From a virus (lineage: Duplodnaviria > Caudoviricetes): DNA of 26,000 nt. Of this stretch, positions 1 to 9,927 are shown in pieces. Position 1 is the first letter of the stretch; every line of letters starts with the position of its first letter. The translations under genes were made by a program, and so were the position numbers. The stretch spans positions 1 through 26,000 of the IMG/VR virus record IMGVR_UViG_3300032216_000707; one strand, written 5' to 3'. The notes under the pieces were generated by a model that was not told the DNA's origin, ran no database searches, and saw only the letters and a program-made list of their open reading frames with translations.

Positions 1-3000
1 CCTGTTGGCCAAATGCAGGCAACAGCAATGAAGTCTGCTGGAACAATCGGAAATGATTCTTATACACTTGGAAGATATAACGCAGCAAAATTAGGACTAC
101 ATCCTGCAACAATTCCATATAAGGTTCTATCTGGAATTACTGATGCATTCTTTAATATCATTACTGATCCATTTAACAGTCTTGGCAAAGTATCAAAACT
201 TGCAGGTGGCGGAAAAACTCTTGCTAAAAATGTAAAGGTTGCTCAAAAAGAGGCAGTTCTTTCAGATGCAATGATTGCAAAAGCAAAGAGTACAGCAAAA
301 GATGTTGCAGAAGAAGCAAAGAAAAAAGCAGAAGAATTAAAACTTAAAGAGCGCAATCGCTATGATGATTCTTACTTGGCTGCTGAAAAAGATTATCAAC
401 TTGCTCAACAGGCTAAAGTTACTGCTCAAGAACTTATTGCTAAAAAAGCACTTAAGCCAAAATCAGTTGAGACTACATTTGTTGGTACTGTTGCAGAGAA
501 AGTTCTTTCACCAGCAAATATAGTAAAGCATATTATTGAACACCCTAAAGCAATGACTGGTGAACTTACAGATGCAATTAATACTCTCTCTGCTGATGTA
601 AAAAATCAGGGTGACATATTTGCAAATCAAGTTCACATGGATACCCTTCCAGAGGGTGGCAAGATTTCAATTGGTGCAAATGGAAATAAAGAACTATTTG
701 TAACTAGAAGTGCATCAAAGTTTGATTTAACTGTTAAAGATCTTAATGAAACTTTTACAAATGCAGATCCTAAAATTGTTAAAAATGAAATTTTAAAACG
801 AGCAGATCTTCTTGATGCAGTAAGCAAAATTGCTAAAGAGACCACAACATGGTCTACTCATCTAGCAGCAAAAGATATGTCTACAAAACTTGCTGATCTA
901 ACAAAGTTAATGACTGGACCAATTAACGTTGGTGAAGGTGGATGGACACTTAGTAAATTCATTCAAGAAGTGAATGCCTATAAAGATCCACTATTTACAC
1001 AATTGTTTAGCGAATCTCTTCATAATATTTATTATAATGTAGATGCTTGGTCAAATACTCGTTCTATTTATGGTGGTAAAGGTGGCTATGTCATTACACC
1101 TGGAGGCGAGACTAGAATTGCAACACGACAGGCAAAAATTACTGATGCAATAGCACAATACAGAAAACCAGATCCAAGTACTGTAAATTCTGTTGCTCAA
1201 AAACTTGTAAACTCTGTAGAGCCAATTGATAAAGTAATTAAAGACGCAAAAAATAATTTATATAAAGCAACTAAAGATCGCAAAGATTTAAATTCTCGCT
1301 TAAAAGATATAGATAAACTGCAAAATTATGCCAAACTAGATCCAGAATTAGCACAAAGAATTGTTAATGATCCAAACAATATAGGTCTTAAAGGCATCAT
1401 TGATCTAAATCTTAAGCATGCTGATTCAACCTATACCATGGAATATATCCGTGCTGAAATGGGATTGCTAAAAGAAATGGGATCTTCCCTATCTCTTGAT
1501 GGAGAAAAAGCAATTAGATCCATTCTTGGTAGATATGGTGATCAAGTAGCAGAAATTACTGCTCCAATAAAAGATCCTGTTGCAATTCATAATCTTTATG
1601 GAAAGAAACTAGAAGCAGATATAGTCAATGAACTTGTCAAAGCATCTACTCCTAACGAAGTTAAGCAAGTATTTTTGCGATATCTTGCCAACAATTTAGA
1701 CATTGAAGTTGCTCAAAGTATGGCATTAAAGGCTGGAGCATTTGCTGCAGCACCTACAACAGTAAGCAAACTTGTTGCTCCTGTAAGTCTTAAGGCTATT
1801 GATAGCCTAGCAAGACTTGAAAAAGCATTCAATCTGTACTATGTTCGTGCTGGAATCTATAATCTTGATGATACCACAGCACTTGTCAATGGTTGGGAAA
1901 ACTGGGTTACATCAATTTCCAAACTTAAGAGTTCAACTGTCATCGGAAAAATGAAGCAAAATGACTTGATTCATGAGGTTCAAACCAAGTTATTTGCATC
2001 AATGACAAAAGCAGAACGATCTCAAATCATTGAAGATGGAACTGTTAAACTTACTATTATGGTGGCAGATGCACTTGGCATTAAAGATAAAGAAGTTTTT
2101 GATCAACTTAAGCAAGTTCTTAAGATAAGCGGAAAAGATAAAATTGGTCAAGCACAGTATTCCGTAAATGAGATTGCCCTTAATAAGGGTGTTGGTTTTA
2201 TTACTCAAAATGGTAGGGAAATTAAAACCGAAAAGGCTTTAATGGCTTGGCAACTACTTGATGATACAATTAAACTTCCAGACACACGTCAAGTTGAGAA
2301 GTTTTTAATTAACTATAAAGCAAATAAATCACTTATTGGAAAAGCAAAGTCTCTAGAAATCCTTGCTCAGGAAGCAGGAGATTACTGGCGTACAGCACAG
2401 TTGGCTTTCCGTGTATCATTTATTCTTCGCAACGTTGGAGAAATGCAGGTTCGTCAATACCTTGGTGGACATACAAGCATTCTCAGCAATCCATTCCAGT
2501 TCCTTTCAATGGTAATTGCCAATCCAGAAGGATCGGAAATTGGAAAGCAATTTGCAAAGGTTGCTCGCTACCAGTATGATGCCTATGGTAATCCTATTAA
2601 GGCTCTTAGCAAGACTCTTGAAAATCCAAAAGTAAAGCAAACTGAAGTTGCTGCACTACAAGAATATCAAAAGTGGGCACATCGCAGTCTTTCTGCAGGA
2701 GACTACAGACAAGGACCTAGACAGAACATTGTTAAGAATTATTCTGTAACTCGTCCTGGAGATTCTGATTACTACAAGGGTCTATCATTTACTCTTGGAA
2801 GAGCAGCAACAGATCAACTATCTAGAGATGTTGCAAAACTTATATTTAATAATGTTGATGAAGCGGAAAAGTCTAAGTATCTGGATAACCTTATTAGTAC
2901 ATTTAAAGATACTAAGATTCCAAACCCTTTAAGAGATATTGCTACTGGAGTATATCGTCAAAATAATGATTTGATGAATCTTATCTTTAAGAATCCAAAA

Positions 3001-5319
3001 CTTGAGGGTGATAAACTCTACGATCCACTTAATCTTAATAGACAAGATATTTATGATTATTTCTTTAATGATAAAAAGCCATTCTCTATTGCAAGCGAAT
3101 TGCAACTATACGCAGGAACTGGTCCTAAGTCAAACATAATTAAAGATATCCTACAAAAAGGATACTCAATTGTTGCTGACTCAAAAGGAAAAGAAACACG
3201 TATTGCTGCTCCAGTTGTGCAAAGAGTTGAATCACCTTTGCAACTAGAGAAAATGGATCAAGAGTTTTCAGCGTTGCTTTCTCGTCACTTAAAGCCAGAA
3301 GATATTAAAGGTTCTCAAGTTCTTGTTCCACATAAGAGCATTGAGGGTGGTGCTATCACAAGCACATTCCGTAAATATATGGATTCATTCTTCCAATTTT
3401 CTACAAAAATGGAAAATGTATTTAACTTTGCACCTGAATATCAACAAACATACTGGTCTTACTGGGCTCGTTATTCACGCTTACTGAGCAATAAAGACTT
3501 TGAGATTTTACGTAAGAATGCTATCAAGGCACTTGCTGGTCCGGCTATTCGATCAGAAAAAACTATTGATGGAGTTACTGCAAATATCATTCGTCCAATT
3601 GGACGTAAGCACCCTATACTTAAGCAACTTGATGCAGAGTATAAAGAGCGCATTAAACCAGGATATGAAGATTATGCAGGAGCATCATTTAATGCTGTAA
3701 ATAATCTTGCATCTGCACAGGCTGGAAAGCGTCTAGCAACAATGTTCTATGATGCTCACAACCAACGTCAGATTGCTAACTCTTGGCGTCTTGTATTTCC
3801 ATTTGCTCAAGCACAGTTTAATACACTAGCAGCATGGGGTAAGTTAGCAGTAGAAAATCCAACAAGAGTATACCGATTTGAAAAAGCCTACAATGCTCTA
3901 TTGCAACCTGGCTCATCAACTCCTTATGACTTATTTGGAATGCCACATGACTCCAATCAAGGATTCTTTTATAGCAATCCAGGAGATTCCCAACACAAAC
4001 CTAGATTCATGTACCCAGGTTCTGGAAACATAATCGGTGCTCTTGCTAGTGGTTCTATCTCTGGTGCTAGTTCAGTTAATATATCATCTCCATTATCATC
4101 ACTTAACGTAGCAACTGGTCAAGTTAATCCTCTTGTGCCAGGAATTGGACCAGCAATCAGTGCTCCATATGTTGTTACTGGAATGAGTGGATTCTTTGGA
4201 AAGCAACATCAATTTTTAAAGAGTATTATTCAACCTTTTGGTAATCCATCAAATCCATATCAGATGATTATACCTGCATGGCTCAATAAAGGATTTCTCT
4301 ATTTCATGAATGATCAAGCAACTGTGCAAACAAATGCAAAAGATTGGGCATCTTACCTAGCATCTACTGGTCAATATGGAACAAATCCACTTGTTAATAT
4401 TACTTCACGTAATGCCCTGTTTCAAGATGCAGAAGATCTTGCACGAGGTGCTGGATTTTGGACAGCAGTATTTCAGAACATACTTCCATCAACACCATCA
4501 GCAGACGTACTTGCTAGTTTTAAAACACCAGAAGGAAAAGTTGCTTTTATGCAGCAAGCAATGCTTCAAAATGACTACCAAGGAATCTTGAAGATGTATC
4601 CCGGTGATAGCATGAAAGCACGCCAAGAATTTGCAAATACTTATGGTATTGAAAATATTTTGATTACAATGAGTGGAACAACTCGTGGAGCAACACGTGG
4701 TAGTGCTGCTGCATGGAACTTCTTAAATGATAATCCAAAGATTGCCCCTGACTATTCTACTGGTGGACCAGATGTTATACCATACTTTTTCCCAGGTGCT
4801 GACTATTCAAGTGCATACTATAACTGGCAGACTCAGACTGGCGTTCGTAAAAAACTAACAGTAGAAGAACTAAAGAAGGAATCTGCATCACTGGTTTATA
4901 AGATGCGTAAGTCTAAGATTGTTGAAGATCAGATTAGCAATAACCTTCCTCGCGACTGGTATGTTGCACAAATACAACAACTTAACAAAGAGTTTGGTGG
5001 AGCAACTCCTCCAGAAACTTTAACAACTGGAAATTCTCAAGAAGCATTGGCTAGAGTTGGTCGTGCTCTCAATACTACAGAATTCCAAAGTTCACCTGTT
5101 TATAATCAGACAAAAGAGTTCTACGATAAGTATATGAACTATCAAAATGCTATTAACACTCAACGTGTTTCTATAACTGGAAGTTTAAAAACAAAGGACT
5201 GGCAAACACAGGTAATGCGTCAGAACCTTCTTGATCTAGCAGATAAACTTATTCAAGAAAATCCTTTGTTTCAGCAAATGTATTATGGTGTGTTCTACTC
5301 TAACTTGAAGGTGAAATAA
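1..5319 (+). CDS. Very large virion protein, probable internal virion/DNA-ejection protein (5'-truncated)
   Basis: Frame is open from base 1, so the true start is probably upstream of the window. At least 1768 aa with helical/coiled-coil character and no catalytic motif that I recognise. It precedes two other large ORFs and the scaffold/capsid genes; function is inferred from size and context. Confidence 0.6.
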   Translation, partial: PVGQMQATAMKSAGTIGNDSYTLGRYNAAKLGLHPATIPYKVLSGITDAFFNIITDPFNSLGKVSKLAGGGKTLAKNVKVAQKEAVLSDAMIAKAKSTAKDVAEEAKKKAEELKLKERNRYDDSYLAAEKDYQLAQQAKVTAQELIAKKALKPKSVETTFVGTVAEKVLSPANIVKHIIEHPKAMTGELTDAINTLSADVKNQGDIFANQVHMDTLPEGGKISIGANGNKELFVTRSASKFDLTVKDLNETFTNADPKIVKNEILKRADLLDAVSKIAKETTTWSTHLAAKDMSTKLADLTKLMTGPINVGEGGWTLSKFIQEVNAYKDPLFTQLFSESLHNIYYNVDAWSNTRSIYGGKGGYVITPGGETRIATRQAKITDAIAQYRKPDPSTVNSVAQKLVNSVEPIDKVIKDAKNNLYKATKDRKDLNSRLKDIDKLQNYAKLDPELAQRIVNDPNNIGLKGIIDLNLKHADSTYTMEYIRAEMGLLKEMGSSLSLDGEKAIRSILGRYGDQVAEITAPIKDPVAIHNLYGKKLEADIVNELVKASTPNEVKQVFLRYLANNLDIEVAQSMALKAGAFAAAPTTVSKLVAPVSLKAIDSLARLEKAFNLYYVRAGIYNLDDTTALVNGWENWVTSISKLKSSTVIGKMKQNDLIHEVQTKLFASMTKAERSQIIEDGTVKLTIMVADALGIKDKEVFDQLKQVLKISGKDKIGQAQYSVNEIALNKGVGFITQNGREIKTEKALMAWQLLDDTIKLPDTRQVEKFLINYKANKSLIGKAKSLEILAQEAGDYWRTAQLAFRVSFILRNVGEMQVRQYLGGHTSILSNPFQFLSMVIANPEGSEIGKQFAKVARYQYDAYGNPIKALSKTLENPKVKQTEVAALQEYQKWAHRSLSAGDYRQGPRQNIVKNYSVTRPGDSDYYKGLSFTLGRAATDQLSRDVAKLIFNNVDEAEKSKYLDNLISTFKDTKIPNPLRDIATGVYRQNNDLMNLIFKNPKLEGDKLYDPLNLNRQDIYDYFFNDKKPFSIASELQLYAGTGPKSNIIKDILQKGYSIVADSKGKETRIAAPVVQRVESPLQLEKMDQEFSALLSRHLKPEDIKGSQVLVPHKSIEGGAITSTFRKYMDSFFQFSTKMENVFNFAPEYQQTYWSYWARYSRLLSNKDFEILRKNAIKALAGPAIRSEKTIDGVTANIIRPIGRKHPILKQLDAEYKERIKPGYEDYAGASFNAVNNLASAQAGKRLATMFYDAHNQRQIANSWRLVFPFAQAQFNTLAAWGKLAVENPTRVYRFEKAYNALLQPGSSTPYDLFGMPHDSNQGFFYSNPGDSQHKPRFMYPGSGNIIGALASGSISGASSVNISSPLSSLNVATGQVNPLVPGIGPAISAPYVVTGMSGFFGKQHQFLKSIIQPFGNPSNPYQMIIPAWLNKGFLYFMNDQATVQTNAKDWASYLASTGQYGTNPLVNITSRNALFQDAEDLARGAGFWTAVFQNILPSTPSADVLASFKTPEGKVAFMQQAMLQNDYQGILKMYPGDSMKARQEFANTYGIENILITMSGTTRGATRGSAAAWNFLNDNPKIAPDYSTGGPDVIPYFFPGADYSSAYYNWQTQTGVRKKLTVEELKKESASLVYKMRKSKIVEDQISNNLPRDWYVAQIQQLNKEFGGATPPETLTTGNSQEALARVGRALNTTEFQSSPVYNQTKEFYDKYMNYQNAINTQRVSITGSLKTKDWQTQVMRQNLLDLADKLIQENPLFQQMYYGVFYSNLKVK

Positions 5320-6536
5320 TGGCAGCGTTTACAGATAGTGGTTATTGGAGCGGTGTAGTAAGTGCTGCAGATACTAACTCTCAAGCATACAATCAGTATC
5401 TATTTGCAACTGGTCAAGGATTAGATACAGATCGCTTTAGACAGTATATTTATTTACCACTTGTAAAAACAGGGCAATGGAGTCACTATCTTCAATTGCT
5501 ACGCTCCAAGGGTTGGTCAACATCTAAGGATTCATCTGGAAATCCAACACCAGAAGATGTAACAGCAGTTAAAGAACTAGTTCAAAGAGCAACAATTTCT
5601 GACACTCAAAGTTGGTTAAGTGTTCTTGAAAATGCTGCACCACCAAGTAAAAAATCAAGCGCAGTAGATACAACACCTACATACAATAAAACAATATCTA
5701 GTGCAATGAAATTTATAGATGCAACAGATGCTCAGCAAACACTAGGCAATGCATGGTTTGCTGCATTTGGCGGATATCCTGGGCAAGATCAAGTTAATCA
5801 ATTTATGAGTGCATTTAATACTGAAATGAAGAATCAGGAAAAGAATACATCTACAACTACTGATTATGTAACAACAAAAGTTCCAGTATTAGACAAAAAT
5901 GGCAAGCAGACAATTAACAAAATTACTGGACTTCCTGTATACAAAGATGTTACTACAACAACATCTGTTACAAAGGGTGAAGGCTTTACAACACAGGAAC
6001 AACAACAATTTCTTGCAGACTATATCTCTAAGAATTTTAACGTTAAAAACAGTTCTGAACTTGCTGGAAACTCAAAGTCAATATATGATTCTCTAGTCGG
6101 AGCATACAGCAATAACTATCTTGACACTCCAGATTTCGTAAATCTTGCGGGAACCATTAAGAACATACTGGATAATCCAGACGCTACTGCACAAAAAGCA
6201 ACACTAGATGATTATATCACAAAGAACATTCGTGCTGTTGCTGCAAAGAAATATGCCGGAATTGCCAATGAACTTCTTGCTGGTGGAGATACCAGTACGT
6301 TTACACAACCTCTATCGAAGACAGCAAGCAAACTTCTTGAAACACAGATAGATGCTACAGATCCATTAATTATTCAGGCATTAAATATGTCAGATGGTAA
6401 GGGTGGATTTAGAGTTGCCAATGATAATGAATTTACAAATCTTATGAAAAATGATAAACGCTACAGCGTTACATCAACTGCAAAACATGATGCAATTAGT
6501 ATGGCAGATGCAATTACACAAAGGTTAGGACGATAA
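5319..6536 (+). CDS. Hypothetical protein, putative internal virion protein (405 aa)
   Basis: TAATG overlap with the upstream gene, AAGGTG SD-like sequence, structural-module context. Confidence 0.55.
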   Translation: MAAFTDSGYWSGVVSAADTNSQAYNQYLFATGQGLDTDRFRQYIYLPLVKTGQWSHYLQLLRSKGWSTSKDSSGNPTPEDVTAVKELVQRATISDTQSWLSVLENAAPPSKKSSAVDTTPTYNKTISSAMKFIDATDAQQTLGNAWFAAFGGYPGQDQVNQFMSAFNTEMKNQEKNTSTTTDYVTTKVPVLDKNGKQTINKITGLPVYKDVTTTTSVTKGEGFTTQEQQQFLADYISKNFNVKNSSELAGNSKSIYDSLVGAYSNNYLDTPDFVNLAGTIKNILDNPDATAQKATLDDYITKNIRAVAAKKYAGIANELLAGGDTSTFTQPLSKTASKLLETQIDATDPLIIQALNMSDGKGGFRVANDNEFTNLMKNDKRYSVTSTAKHDAISMADAITQRLGR

Positions 6537-7996
6537 TGGCAACATCATATCGCGCTGGTGAAAGAGATACAACAGTACCTAACGTTCCAATAGTTTCTAA
6601 AGTACCTAACGTTCCAGCAGCACCCGCTAACCCTCTTCTTGAGTATATGCAAACTCTCACAAAGACAGCAGATGCTATTAAGGCTACACTTGCTCCAGTT
6701 GCACCTACAGTTACAACTCCTCCAGTTGTTGATGAATACGGAAGAACTGTAGTAACAAAAACAGATACTGCTACTGGAAAAGTAACCAAAGAAATAACAT
6801 CTGCAGGTGGATCATCTACTGTTATAAAAAATGATACCAATGCAACAAATCAAAATCAATTAGCAGCATATGAGGCTTTACATCCAGCACCAGAAGGTTT
6901 TCACTATGGTGAAAAACCAAATCCCGATGGAACATTTGTACTTTTTTATAATTTTGATAATCCTGACAATCCAAGTACTAAGGCACTTAAGAACGCGATT
7001 CAACCAGTAGATAATCCAATAAAAAAGCCAACAACACCAGCATTAAATACTACAACTGTTGCTGGGCCATCAACTGATATTGATGTTTTAAAATCTCTTT
7101 TGCTTGGAAGAGGATACCCTTCCTCTCTTGTTGATGAATCAGTTCCTTATCTTTCATCTCTGCTTAAAGATGGACTTGCTCCATCAGATGCTGTAGAGAT
7201 TTATCTCAATGCAAAAAACTATACAACAAAATCTGGAAATCAACTAACCTCTCCTTTCTATAATACATACGGCAAGTTTAATGAAGGACTAAAAACTCCT
7301 TATGATGCTGGAACATTATTCCAAACAGTTGAAGGTTACAAAAATATTCAAGGTAAGTATCATCTAAATTCTAACTTTTTTACAGATAATAGTATCAAAC
7401 AGTATCTATCAAATAATATCGATGTGAAGACACTAGATGAGCGTGCCAATGCTGCACGACTTAAGGCTGTAACTGCAGATCCAGTCTATGTCAGTGCTCT
7501 ACAAAAACTTGGTTATATTAACAATGCTCAAGATTTAACGGACTTTTACTTAGATCCAACAATTGGAACTGAGGCACTTACTCAAAAGCGTAACACTGCA
7601 GCATTTGCTACAGAAGCATTGCGTCAAGCAAATCTACAAAATGGTGTTCAGTTTAGAGAACAATTTGTTAATCAAATGGGTGCTGAACTTACCAATAAGG
7701 GTTACTCTGAGAATCAAATTGCTAATCTTGCACAATCAGGTTATCAGAATATTGCAGCACAACTTGGTACTACAACTAAGTTATCTGGAATATATCAAGG
7801 ACCTAATGCTGGAACAAGTGATCAGATTCAACAAGAACTTCAAGCACAAGAATTCCAAGGACTTGACTCTCAACGTAGAGCACTTCTTAACCAACAAGAA
7901 ATTCAAGGCTTCCAAGGTTCTGCTGGACTCAGTGGAACATCTGCATACCTACGTAAGACTTCTCTCCAGAAGCCTGGCGTAATTGGAATGCTATAA
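6536..7996 (+). CDS. Hypothetical protein, putative internal virion protein (486 aa; Pro/Thr-rich N-terminus, Gln-rich helical C-terminus)
   Basis: TAATG overlap, AGGA SD, lies directly before the scaffold gene. Confidence 0.55.
   Translation: MATSYRAGERDTTVPNVPIVSKVPNVPAAPANPLLEYMQTLTKTADAIKATLAPVAPTVTTPPVVDEYGRTVVTKTDTATGKVTKEITSAGGSSTVIKNDTNATNQNQLAAYEALHPAPEGFHYGEKPNPDGTFVLFYNFDNPDNPSTKALKNAIQPVDNPIKKPTTPALNTTTVAGPSTDIDVLKSLLLGRGYPSSLVDESVPYLSSLLKDGLAPSDAVEIYLNAKNYTTKSGNQLTSPFYNTYGKFNEGLKTPYDAGTLFQTVEGYKNIQGKYHLNSNFFTDNSIKQYLSNNIDVKTLDERANAARLKAVTADPVYVSALQKLGYINNAQDLTDFYLDPTIGTEALTQKRNTAAFATEALRQANLQNGVQFREQFVNQMGAELTNKGYSENQIANLAQSGYQNIAAQLGTTTKLSGIYQGPNAGTSDQIQQELQAQEFQGLDSQRRALLNQQEIQGFQGSAGLSGTSAYLRKTSLQKPGVIGML
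6574..6616 (+). repeat. In-frame 16-bp direct repeat AGTACCTAACGTTCCA x2 (encodes VPNVP twice)
   Basis: Copies at 6574-6589 and 6601-6616, 27-bp period. Confidence 0.85.
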
Positions 7997-8008
7997 CAAA
8001 CTAAAATC

Positions 8009-8130
8009 CCTACATGGATCCATCGGCCCCATGAGGCGTACAAGACCGAGAGTACAAGCCAATACAGATACCCCGTCTGGATTGAGGTGTGCGACAACTA
8101 CTAACAAGGGAGAAAGTTGCTATGAGCAAC
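8009..8130 (+). promoter_or_regulatory. Candidate structured cis-regulatory RNA leader of the scaffold gene
   Basis: Stem CCU-A-CAUGG/CCAUG-AGG (8009-8036); loop UCGG complementary to CCGA (8046-8049); long hairpin 8052-8092; GUUGCU-AUG-AGCAAC hairpin enclosing the start codon. Confidence 0.6.
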
Positions 8131-8601
8131 AACCGCGACAACTACTGGGATGACGAAGAAGATGATGTAGAGGATGTTCAATCATTCGATACTGACACAG
8201 ATCTCGTTAAGAAACTACGTAAGGCTCTCAAAGCAGAGCAACGTAAAAACAAAGAGTTTGAAACACAACTCAGTGAACTTACAAAATCCCAAAAAGAGCG
8301 GATTCTAAAGGATGTGCTTACATCCCGTGGAGTCAAACCATCAATTGCAAAGTATGTTCCAAATGACCTTGAAGCCTCACCAGAGGCTATCAATGCTTGG
8401 CTAGATGCTAACGCCGAAGATTTTAATATCGAGGCAAATACATCAAAGCCAGCAATTCCCGAGGAAGATCTTTCTAATATGAAAAAGATGGATAAGGTGA
8501 CAACGGGTGCAGAGCCTTCCGCAGCCTCTACTACTGCAGAGCAACTTATTGCTAATGCAACATCAGAAGAGGAAATTCTATCCATTCTAAGCGGTCTCTA
8601 A
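8122..8601 (+). CDS. Capsid scaffolding protein (159 aa)
   Basis: AAGGGAG SD before ATG 8122. Acidic N-terminus (DDEEDDVED), coiled coil (KKLRKALKAEQRKNKEFETQLSEL), short C-terminal helix; immediately upstream of the capsid gene. Confidence 0.75.
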   Translation: MSNNRDNYWDDEEDDVEDVQSFDTDTDLVKKLRKALKAEQRKNKEFETQLSELTKSQKERILKDVLTSRGVKPSIAKYVPNDLEASPEAINAWLDANAEDFNIEANTSKPAIPEEDLSNMKKMDKVTTGAEPSAASTTAEQLIANATSEEEILSILSGL

Positions 8602-8634
8602 ACCGCACACTAACCAGAAGGGAGACTAAGCCAA

Positions 8635-9609
8635 ATGGCAGACGTCTTTTCAACTACAACCTCTGGTGTTGGTTCCAATCTCGTAACAATGGCGTACGAC
8701 AAGTTGGTAGAACTCAACTTGCGTACAACCCCACAGTTCCGTGCTATTGCTGACAAAAAAGTTGGCAACCCAACCCACGATGGTTCATCAATCCGCTTCC
8801 AATTCTTCAATGATATTGCGGATACCTCAGTTGCTGGAGCAACGCTTTCAGAAACAACAGATCCAGATGCTGTAGCAATTCCTGCTACAACAACACTCGA
8901 TGTGTCTCAAACTGAACTCGGACGCGTTGTTCTTCCAACACGTAAACTCTCACTTATGTCTTTGACAGACGTTGATCCATGGATTGCTAACGCAGTCGCG
9001 TTCAACATGTCTTTGACACTTGACAACGCTGTGGCTGCTATCCTAGATGCAGGTACAAACGTTATCCGTGAATCTGCTGGTTCACTTTCAACATCTGCTG
9101 CTAAGACAACTATCACAACAACAGACTTGCTTAAGTCTCGTGATATTCGTTACGCAGTAACAAAGATGCGCGCTAGCAACGTTGTTCCAAAGGCTGGAAA
9201 CACATTCGTTGCATATGTTCACCCTGAAGTATCTGCGGACCTCCGCACAGAAACAGGAAACAACGTATGGCGTACACCAACAGATTACGTGGATCCAACA
9301 CGTAACTTTGCTGGTGAAATCGGTACATGGGAAGGTGTTCGTTTTATCGAGACACCAAACATGACAAATACACAATCAGGTTCTGGTACAGGTGGTACTC
9401 AGACTCGTGTATTTAACTCTTATGTCCTTGGCTCACAGGCTCTTGCAGAGGCTGTCTGGAAGGAACCACGTATTGAGTTCGGTAACGTTGTAGACAAGTT
9501 GAACCGCTTCCGTCCTGTCGGATGGCACGGAATCATCAACTGGGCTATTTATCGTCAGGCTGCTCTATACCGCATTGAGACTTCCTCTTCTGGTCGTTCT
9601 CAGGCTTAA
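8635..9609 (+). CDS. Major capsid protein (HK97 fold, N4-gp56-like family)
   Basis: 324 aa with AAGGGAG SD. Motifs YVHPEVSADLR, GEIGTWEGVRFIET and D-K-L-N-R-F-R-P-V-G-W are typical of this capsid family. Confidence 0.9.
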   Translation: MADVFSTTTSGVGSNLVTMAYDKLVELNLRTTPQFRAIADKKVGNPTHDGSSIRFQFFNDIADTSVAGATLSETTDPDAVAIPATTTLDVSQTELGRVVLPTRKLSLMSLTDVDPWIANAVAFNMSLTLDNAVAAILDAGTNVIRESAGSLSTSAAKTTITTTDLLKSRDIRYAVTKMRASNVVPKAGNTFVAYVHPEVSADLRTETGNNVWRTPTDYVDPTRNFAGEIGTWEGVRFIETPNMTNTQSGSGTGGTQTRVFNSYVLGSQALAEAVWKEPRIEFGNVVDKLNRFRPVGWHGIINWAIYRQAALYRIETSSSGRSQA

Positions 9610-9667
9610 TTAAGTAGTTAGACGGGTGGGGCTGGGGAAACCCAGCCCTATCAGTAAAACCGCTTAG
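9610..9667 (+). promoter_or_regulatory. Long RNA hairpin with GAAA tetraloop and AGACG/AGUAA internal loop, abutting the next SD
   Basis: 12-bp inner stem 9625-9636/9641-9652 and outer stem 9610-9619/9658-9667; no U-tract follows. Confidence 0.65.
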
Positions 9668-9675
9668 GAGGCGAT

Positions 9676-9927
9676 ATGACATACAAATTCACAACACCCA
9701 CAATCAGTGAGGGACCTGCTGGTGAAGGGCGTCTATTCAGCCGTTATAGGCTCGTACGGGGCATTTCAGTACTTAAGATAGGTTCTACCTACTACCAAGT
9801 CAGATATCCATCCAGCGAGGATGTAAAGGCTGCTGATAAGGCATACATTGGTGGATACTCTTATGAGGTAGATGCCACAGAAAAGGCTGCCCTAGAGGCT
9901 GCCGGATATACAGTGGCTACCATATGA
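9676..9927 (+). CDS. Hypothetical protein (83 aa), possible head-associated protein
   Basis: AGGAGG SD; directly after the capsid gene. Confidence 0.75.
   Translation: MTYKFTTPTISEGPAGEGRLFSRYRLVRGISVLKIGSTYYQVRYPSSEDVKAADKAYIGGYSYEVDATEKAALEAAGYTVATI

Follow-up and report, generated by a model that had tools for sequence, protein, structure and literature searches.

A comparison of homologous loci indicates that the gap ahead of the head scaffolding gene in a 26-kb linear virus record (the window, that is, the whole stretch of DNA analyzed) carries a real, conserved, uncatalogued, and widespread cis-regulatory RNA. Covariation supports stem P1, pseudoknot 1, stem P3, and a three-pair helix between a hairpin loop and the Shine-Dalgarno (SD) sequence of the scaffold gene, set at a fixed distance from an AG/G internal loop. 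The structured leader occupies positions 8009-8112. Because pairing of its tip with the ribosome-binding site is predicted, the leader is likely a switch that limits scaffold production.

Locus and architecture of the leader

Three open reading frames spanning 13-7996, coupled through TAATG overlaps, precede a gap of 125 nt (7997-8121; the upstream stop codon ends at 7996 and the scaffold ATG lies at 8122), and the scaffold and capsid genes follow (Table 1). The earlier note had singled out this gap within a TAATG-coupled operon, and both the gap length and the joins of the three upstream frames were confirmed in the sequence. The syntenic gene of phages Dennebes and JPandJE is annotated as encoding a scaffolding protein. 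A GTG at 8089 was considered as the scaffold start and rejected; the conserved start is the ATG at 8122 with its SD. The nearest cultured capsids are those of Streptomyces Beephvirinae (42-44% identity to the window capsid), and relatives of the capsid gene are present in Streptomyces and Herbidospora genomes, so the host of the window phage is likely actinobacterial.

Table 1. Positions of the leader elements and neighboring genes in the window.
Feature	Position	Strand	Description
Upstream ORF, 486 aa	6536..7996	+	phrog_8424, function unknown; stop codon 12 nt 5′ of P1
P1 (stem 1 of pseudoknot 1)	8009..8036	+	8009-8017 with 8029-8036; A8012 bulged
Pseudoknot 1 helix	8023..8049	+	UCGG 8023-8026 with CCGA 8046-8049; C8027-G8044 added across bulged A8045
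Pseudoknot 1 loop 3	8037..8043	+	CGUACAA; last base is the conserved A, then G8044
Second domain	8051..8093	+	Conserved A8051 opposite G8093; P3, GUACA 8052-8056 with UGUGC 8088-8092
Second domain, inside P3			Internal loop A8057 G8058 / G8087; C8059-G8086; bulge 8085; 8060-8063 with 8081-8084
P4 hairpin stem	8065-8069 with 8075-8079	+	Closes distal loop
Distal loop	8070..8074	+	ACCCC; C8072-C8074 predicted partners of G8110-G8108 (pseudoknot 2)
Linker, P3 base to SD	8094..8107	+	A/C-rich; 8-24 nt in 201 of 202 leaders
SD of scaffold gene	8108..8112	+	GGGAG, 9 nt 5′ of ATG; read in the sequence, conserved
Head scaffolding protein, 159 aa	8122..8601	+	phrog_7813, E 2.6e-29; phrog_648 (scaffolding), E 5e-6
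Major capsid protein	8635..9609	+	phrog_1357, E 2.5e-60; own SD in 33-nt leader

P1 and the UCGG helix would together form one H-type pseudoknot, followed by the conserved A/G opposition leading into P3, the AG/G internal loop, P4, and the C loop. The second pseudoknot would then be closed by the A/C-rich linker, which returns the SD up to the C loop. In the window P1 encloses 11 nt, made up of a conserved A-Y-C-N-R (8018-8022), the pairing strand, and C8028, and the enclosed length is 10-12 nt in all 202 leaders of the parsed set described below. A8022 and G8050 are mismatched in the window and form an A-U pair in most relatives. Loop 3 ends in A in 97% of leaders, and the next base is G in 96% (n = 186). 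The hairpin measures 25-30 nt from AGC to GG in 202/202 leaders, and its sequence varies freely. At two loci (L465 and L468) the near-invariant AGC/GG internal loop reads AUC/GC, two opposed non-pairing positions having changed in concert. The linker resembles the leader of the capsid gene and may therefore be a plain open stretch; several of the longer linkers (L339, L498, L576, L599, and L635) contain a small hairpin, as judged by eye. A structured RNA had been proposed at 8009..8093, and it is real; its 3′ end lies further on, at the SD (8108-8112).

The capsid leader (33 nt) lacks a stable fold (z 0.03). An ACUAA(C)-AGAAGGGAG-type run in it (8602-8634) also occurs in the scaffold linker and SD, and close relatives keep it. 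After the capsid stop, positions 9605-9680 of the window hold a very stable predicted hairpin (z -5.5), in which the terminator scan called no U tail; it is likely a 3′ stabilizer or an atypical terminator of the scaffold-capsid mRNA.

Folding energy, covariation, and the loop-SD helix

The gap had been described as almost fully pairable. The pairings are present, but their energy is unremarkable against shuffles, with z about -1. Folds that ignore pseudoknots gave z -0.5 for 7985-8125 and -1.04 for 8005-8097, and similarly pseudoknot-blind folds of 40 members drawn from the 202 leaders had a median z of -1.24; the 3′ hairpin alone was the sole part to reach z -2.3. The earlier note had held that an energy no better than that of shuffled controls, as found here, would speak against the element, but such folds cannot score pseudoknots. 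It is covariation, not folding energy, that places the element above chance.

Conservation was strong across the leaders of 80 loci with scaffold homologues (protein identity 57-65%), and in 12 of these the motif had 81% identity versus 51% in the upstream coding stretch. An alignment of 59 leaders (A1), part of them fetched by a pattern with a fixed CCGA, had P1 paired at 96.5%, with two-sided changes at 5/5 P1 pairs, and pseudoknot 1 paired at 93.5%, with its four core pairs standard in 59/59. The nine pairs of the P3 region were 100% paired. P4 was paired at 73.5%, a low figure because MAFFT cannot register P4 indels. Overall, 93.2% of cells were paired, and two-sided changes occurred at 17 of 24 pairs. 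This score was matched by none of 500 shuffles, which ignore relatedness, and slid controls were paired at 22-40%. In 89 more diverse leaders, P1 was paired at 94.2%, and the core pairs of pseudoknot 1 were standard in all 89.

These data bear directly on the pairings of the earlier note. Its P1 (CCU-A-CAUGG with CCAUG-AGG) and its UCGG/CCGA H-type pseudoknot lie where it had placed them, the latter now extended by C8027-G8044, and the covariation of both in related phages, which it had proposed as a check, was found in the 59 leaders. Its second hairpin (CAAU/AUUG and CAGAU/GUCUG around an ACCCC loop) is likewise in place, and the GUAC/GUGC closure it suggested for that hairpin is P3, kept in 59/59. 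A kissing loop between GUAC 8038-8041 and 8052-8055 fared poorly by comparison, with all four pairs in only 31/59 leaders and no covariation. CGUAC with GUGCG, for which all five pairs form in only 33/59, was rejected as a conserved helix, as was the kissing loop. Since four of the CGUAC/GUGCG pairs can still form in 56-58 of the 59 leaders, though they show no two-sided change, an alternative fold of this kind is possible in the window's clade.

The pairing words of pseudoknot 1 also occur as CCGG/CCGG, CCAG/CUGG, CUAG/CUAG, and CUGG/CCAG, in counts biased by the search patterns used. On a quick tree of the scaffold protein (80 rows picked for diversity) these words switch repeatedly: UCGG appears within CCAG-rich clades (L243, L491, and L465/L468) and CCAG within a UCGG clade (L395). 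Chance pairing, or conservation of a DNA site such as a promoter, would fit a folding energy close to that of shuffles. The two-sided changes in P1, pseudoknot 1, and P3, the G-U-tolerant changes, and the repeated switches on the tree speak against it, and we regard its probability as negligible.

The earlier note had added, as an aside, that the CCC loop could pair with the GGG of the SD. We counted this helix, pseudoknot 2, with an anchored parser because MAFFT had misaligned its columns in alignment A4. The parser returned 219 distinct rows; 17 were dropped, namely 5 false parses and 12 rows that looked genuine but had no scaffold hit or were excluded by locus id (each of the 12 was CCC/GGG), and 202 were kept. 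These 202 distinct leaders comprised 197 with CCC/GGG, three with UCC/GGA (L498, L618, and L635), two with CUC/GAG (L114 and L130), and no discordant case, so the aside holds, with five leaders changed on both sides and none on one side; the DNA patterns that fetched the loop/SD variants did not include the SD, and the parser itself required an SD-like word. All 12 Beephvirinae leaders examined had CCU/AGG, the loop reading CCUAG and the SD CUAGG. With these variants, each of the three loop-SD pairs is compensated in some lineage, comparative evidence for a structure overlapping with the ribosome-binding site. The UCC/GGA rows sit on long, unresolved branches of the quick tree and may represent one to three events. 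No discordant loop/SD case was found among 20 distinct rows from 26 unparsed scaffold loci. The loop triplet was unpaired in the minimum free energy fold of the hairpin in 201/202 leaders, and its distance from the internal-loop AGC was 11-13 nt in 197/202. A pair flanking the triplet forms in 83/202 leaders against a shuffled mean of 64, so its covariation is partial. A reading as an anticodon-loop mimic was dropped because loop size varies.

Distribution and 5′ contexts

Every full-length model hit precedes a scaffold homologue. Among 250 loci found from the protein side with a scaffold hit, a redundant set in which some contigs are repeated, 225 were parsed, 16 were too short, 2 had the 3′ half only, and for 7 further loci the motif was seen by eye or the row duplicated a motif-bearing one. 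From the other direction, a motif-only scan yielded 40 distinct rows with a scaffold hit just downstream, and model R2, run on the 90 remaining pattern loci, gave 11 full-length strong hits, 11/11 ahead of a scaffold gene. An earlier DNA pattern with an over-long minimum gap held 2 true members among the 94 scanned of its 107 loci. A capsid alignment was used for the wider homologue search. Genomes holding a scaffold locus had one motif hit each (5/5), and 150 other genomes of the same phylum, with 24 candidates scored per genome, had only two weak hits (E about 0.005, one in G093), which we counted as chance. The structure is thus conserved in the initiation region of a single gene family. 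No genes other than scaffold homologues were found to follow the motif, whereas a metabolite riboswitch would be expected before host genes of one pathway.

Models R1 and R2 do not detect the Beephvirinae leaders, which we count as members on the basis of position, architecture, shared words (AAGA, GCAYGAGC, and GGCRUGC), and covariation of their own (GCUGG/CCAGC, GUCAG/CUGAC, and GCCAG/CUGGC). The 3′ half of the motif occurs alone, fused to upstream coding sequence, in L094/L466 and L429, and is duplicated next to an N in L188; these partial motifs are probably misassemblies and possibly deletions.

The motif is found in three 5′ contexts: after a stop codon, at a predicted promoter, and at a tRNA or tRNA-like 3′ end. 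The RNA accordingly behaves as a self-contained leader. The window belongs to the first class, in which only 5 of 178 leaders have a TAnnnT hexamer at the promoter place, and a promoter at P1 is not supported there. In short-linker leaders of the Streptomyces-prophage type, a TAnnnT hexamer ends 17-19 nt 5′ of the pseudoknot strand in 20/27, compared with 0-2 in upstream windows, and its position predicts a transcription start at P1. A tRNA 3′ end lies within a few nucleotides of P1 in 12/12 Beephvirinae loci and in L472, L487, L630, and L631, and tRNA-like ends do so in others. A tRNA search of the window found none, and adjoining tRNAs are a feature of some other lineages only.

Several elements accompany these 5′ contexts. 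An inverted repeat of GCTAGC half-sites lies ~20-50 nt upstream of P1 at 14 Streptomyces-prophage-type loci (L480, L481, L482, L483, L485, L582, L595, L601, L604, L628, L643, L657, L659, and L693), overlapping the predicted scaffold promoter in its -35 region, and is a possible site for a late-gene regulator. Short tmRNA-like tRNA-like domains without an apparent mRNA-like part occur upstream of the motif in L476 (30-111, + strand) and L634 (877-957, - strand), with similar domains in L498, L535, and L609; their Rfam tmRNA matches score 41-43 bits over ~80 nt. In L201 (6349-8369) and other Beephvirinae a whole tRNA array of ~21-23 genes is placed between the upstream gene and the motif, and the array includes a GC-rich, highly foldable, unannotated gap of ~245 nt that is conserved in L201 (7300-7543) and L202 (1535-1778).

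Proposed control of scaffold synthesis and related systems

We consider it quite probable, from the compensation in the comparative data, that translational control acts through the loop-SD helix. The leader would fold into two stacked pseudoknots, the second joining the C-rich loop to the GGG of the scaffold SD. Three pairs should be too weak alone against the 30S subunit, so the site would stay mostly open until a partner stabilizes the fold. The likely partner would be scaffold protein not yet taken up by capsid protein, bound through a basic helix face. In this way the output of scaffold would follow capsid supply, and the capsid gene, with its own open SD, would stay on. Whether the leader is a translational operator clamped shut by free scaffolding protein, in an autoregulation like that of P22, is in our estimate an even call. 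We advance more tentatively, at somewhat below even chances, a fuller proposal in which the tandem-pseudoknot RNA is a dedicated scaffold sensor, its ribosome site locked by the basic helix, across a range that runs from phages and prophages of Streptomyces to a large group of uncultured phages, and in which the same fold caps the mRNA 5′ end, letting tRNA arrays insert directly upstream.

The scaffold protein has features that suit such a role. Its AlphaFold2 model (mean pLDDT 82) has an acidic N-tail, a long helix (residues 25-69), a small helical domain, and a C-terminal helix-loop-helix. The long helix in the model bears a conserved basic face (K30, R33, K34, K37, R41, and K44). In 84 homologues chosen by likeness to the query, the mean net charge is -14, yet residues 27-44 are net positive in 84/84; R33 is invariant, and positions 30, 34, 37, and 41 are K or R in 82-87%. 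Beephvirinae scaffolds keep the L-R and are less basic in that region. The model matched no RNA-binding fold in these searches: Foldseek gave no match at E 0.001, and VIA-align returned generic coiled coils only (best Z 6.0, rmsd 1.8, 49 aligned). The basic face could instead contact capsid, portal, or the acidic tail of a neighboring scaffold.

The same SD-pairing leader might answer to another partner, such as capsid or portal protein, a host factor (e.g., S1), or a metabolite, or might have no partner and simply fix a low scaffold-to-capsid ratio. All of the RNA evidence bears on the fold and not on the ligand, and SD-pairing pseudoknots are common in riboswitches. We still judge this alternative unlikely, since the motif, unlike metabolite riboswitches, is confined to positions before scaffold homologues and absent from sampled host chromosomes, and near-invariant unpaired bases or a fixed hairpin length would be superfluous in a fixed damper. 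The rigid dimensions, strict head-gene linkage, and basic scaffold face would also suit an assembly RNA. Such an RNA could bring in scaffold or portal and seed procapsid formation on the mRNA, or it could be cut out and work in trans in the manner of phi29 pRNA; for P22, an interaction between portal and mRNA was at one time suggested, with scant evidence according to PMC5529062. The SD lies inside the fold, which points to a role in cis, and the terminator scan found nothing resembling a terminator from the motif to the scaffold gene, so that we regard an assembly RNA as very improbable.

Of the roles listed in the earlier note, a translational operator fits best, 5′ stabilization is perhaps an added one, and a ribozyme is unlikely. 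HDV-like ribozymes fold as a nested double pseudoknot, with a P2 strand and the P3 hairpin both lying inside P1. The 10-12 nt enclosed by P1 in 202/202 leaders are too few for this fold, which excludes it. A self-cleaving, theta-like ribozyme that frees the scaffold-capsid mRNA or trims an upstream tRNA would explain the invariant unpaired bases and the tRNA 3′ ends that adjoin the motif in several lineages, the context in which theta (minimal HDV-like) ribozymes are described as starting in passages of PMC10879173 on phage RNAs. The leader differs from these in its tandem, not nested, pseudoknots and in that most members have no upstream tRNA; promoter-type leaders offer no upstream RNA for cleavage, the SD forms the end of the fold, and Rfam gave no ribozyme match, all of which makes self-cleavage extremely improbable. 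Protection or definition of the 5′ end of the scaffold-capsid mRNA against 5′-dependent decay (RNase J or RNase E) accords better with the predicted start at P1 in 20/27 short-linker leaders and with tRNA ends close to P1 in Beephvirinae and other loci; RNase J degrades 5′-monophosphate RNA and is present in mycobacteria, according to sections of PMC3997798. As the main job of the leader it is rather improbable, because it leaves the loop-SD compensation unexplained, the window's class has the hexamer in only 5/178 and the window has no tRNA, and the promoter-type and tRNA-type lineages are not independent samples. As a second role beside translational control it is plausible, and pseudoknot 1 would likely also shield the 5′ end where the mRNA begins at P1.

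The earlier note could not assign the RNA to a known family, and a whole-window scan with Rfam 15 agreed, with no covariance model reaching its gathering score at the locus. Rfam 15 on 7950-8170 gave only fragments at E 4 and E 9, Rfam on 20 related loci gave only tRNA and tmRNA matches beside the motif, and blastn of the gap against annotated phages gave no match. The GP20-a and GP20-b motifs, reportedly put forward by Weinberg and colleagues in 2017, are candidate cis-regulatory RNAs upstream of phage scaffold-type genes. The present leader shares this position with them, and Rfam gave no hit at the window locus; the main text of PMC5737381, in the part covered, does not name them. A published description of the leader RNA was not found in the literature searched, the alignment archives of Weinberg 2017 and Fremin 2023, which could hold the motif, lying outside the comparison. 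The RNA is not described in the portions of text covered from Weinberg 2017, Fremin 2023, and a 2026 genome-language-model preprint, and the tables covered from Fremin et al. 2023 (PMC10690425), alignment archives apart, had no match for the motif words or for capsid/scaffold terms.

The leader brings a new architecture to a type of control that is already known. Autoregulation of the P22 scaffold is said to have been known since 1985, through work by Casjens and Adams and by Wyckoff and Casjens. Passages of a preprint (bioRxiv 10.1101/2022.12.13.520362) describe post-transcriptional self-control of the P22 gene 8 scaffold and implicate its N-terminal part. No defined RNA structure for the gene 8 target was found in the literature searched. 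Both systems concern a scaffold gene; regulation was observed for P22 and is proposed here, and the window scaffold has no demonstrated homology to that of P22. An H-type pseudoknot in a phage leader is also found in gene 32 of T4, T2, and RB69, where an A-rich stretch and the ribosome site lie 3′ of it (PMC3014915, in part). That gene specifies a protein that binds single-stranded DNA, whereas the present one encodes a scaffold, and the gene 32 protein spreads over an unstructured ribosome site, whereas here the second domain would pair with the SD directly. The preQ1, SAM-II, and guanidine-III riboswitches are SD-pairing pseudoknots. They resemble the leader in the short loop-SD helix that closes a pseudoknot and in conserved junction bases; the leader, unlike them, has no Rfam match and occurs only before phage scaffold genes, not metabolic genes.

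Head assembly requires scaffold and capsid in the right ratio. The leader offers precise mutable pairs at a ribosome site, a candidate protein surface, and cultured Streptomyces phages in which both could be tested. If the scaffold-sensor reading is true, the leader would be a structurally defined operator for scaffold autoregulation, and a protein-gated SD switch, if that is what it is, would provide a compact regulatory part for expression in actinomycetes. The group is large, with an estimated ~3,400 IMG/VR stretches hit by the capsid patterns and 650 scaffold-matching protein clusters at 50% identity. Capsid proteins encoded by L204 (3514-4710) and a subset of L245-L284 have an insertion of ~65-70 residues close to the C-terminus.
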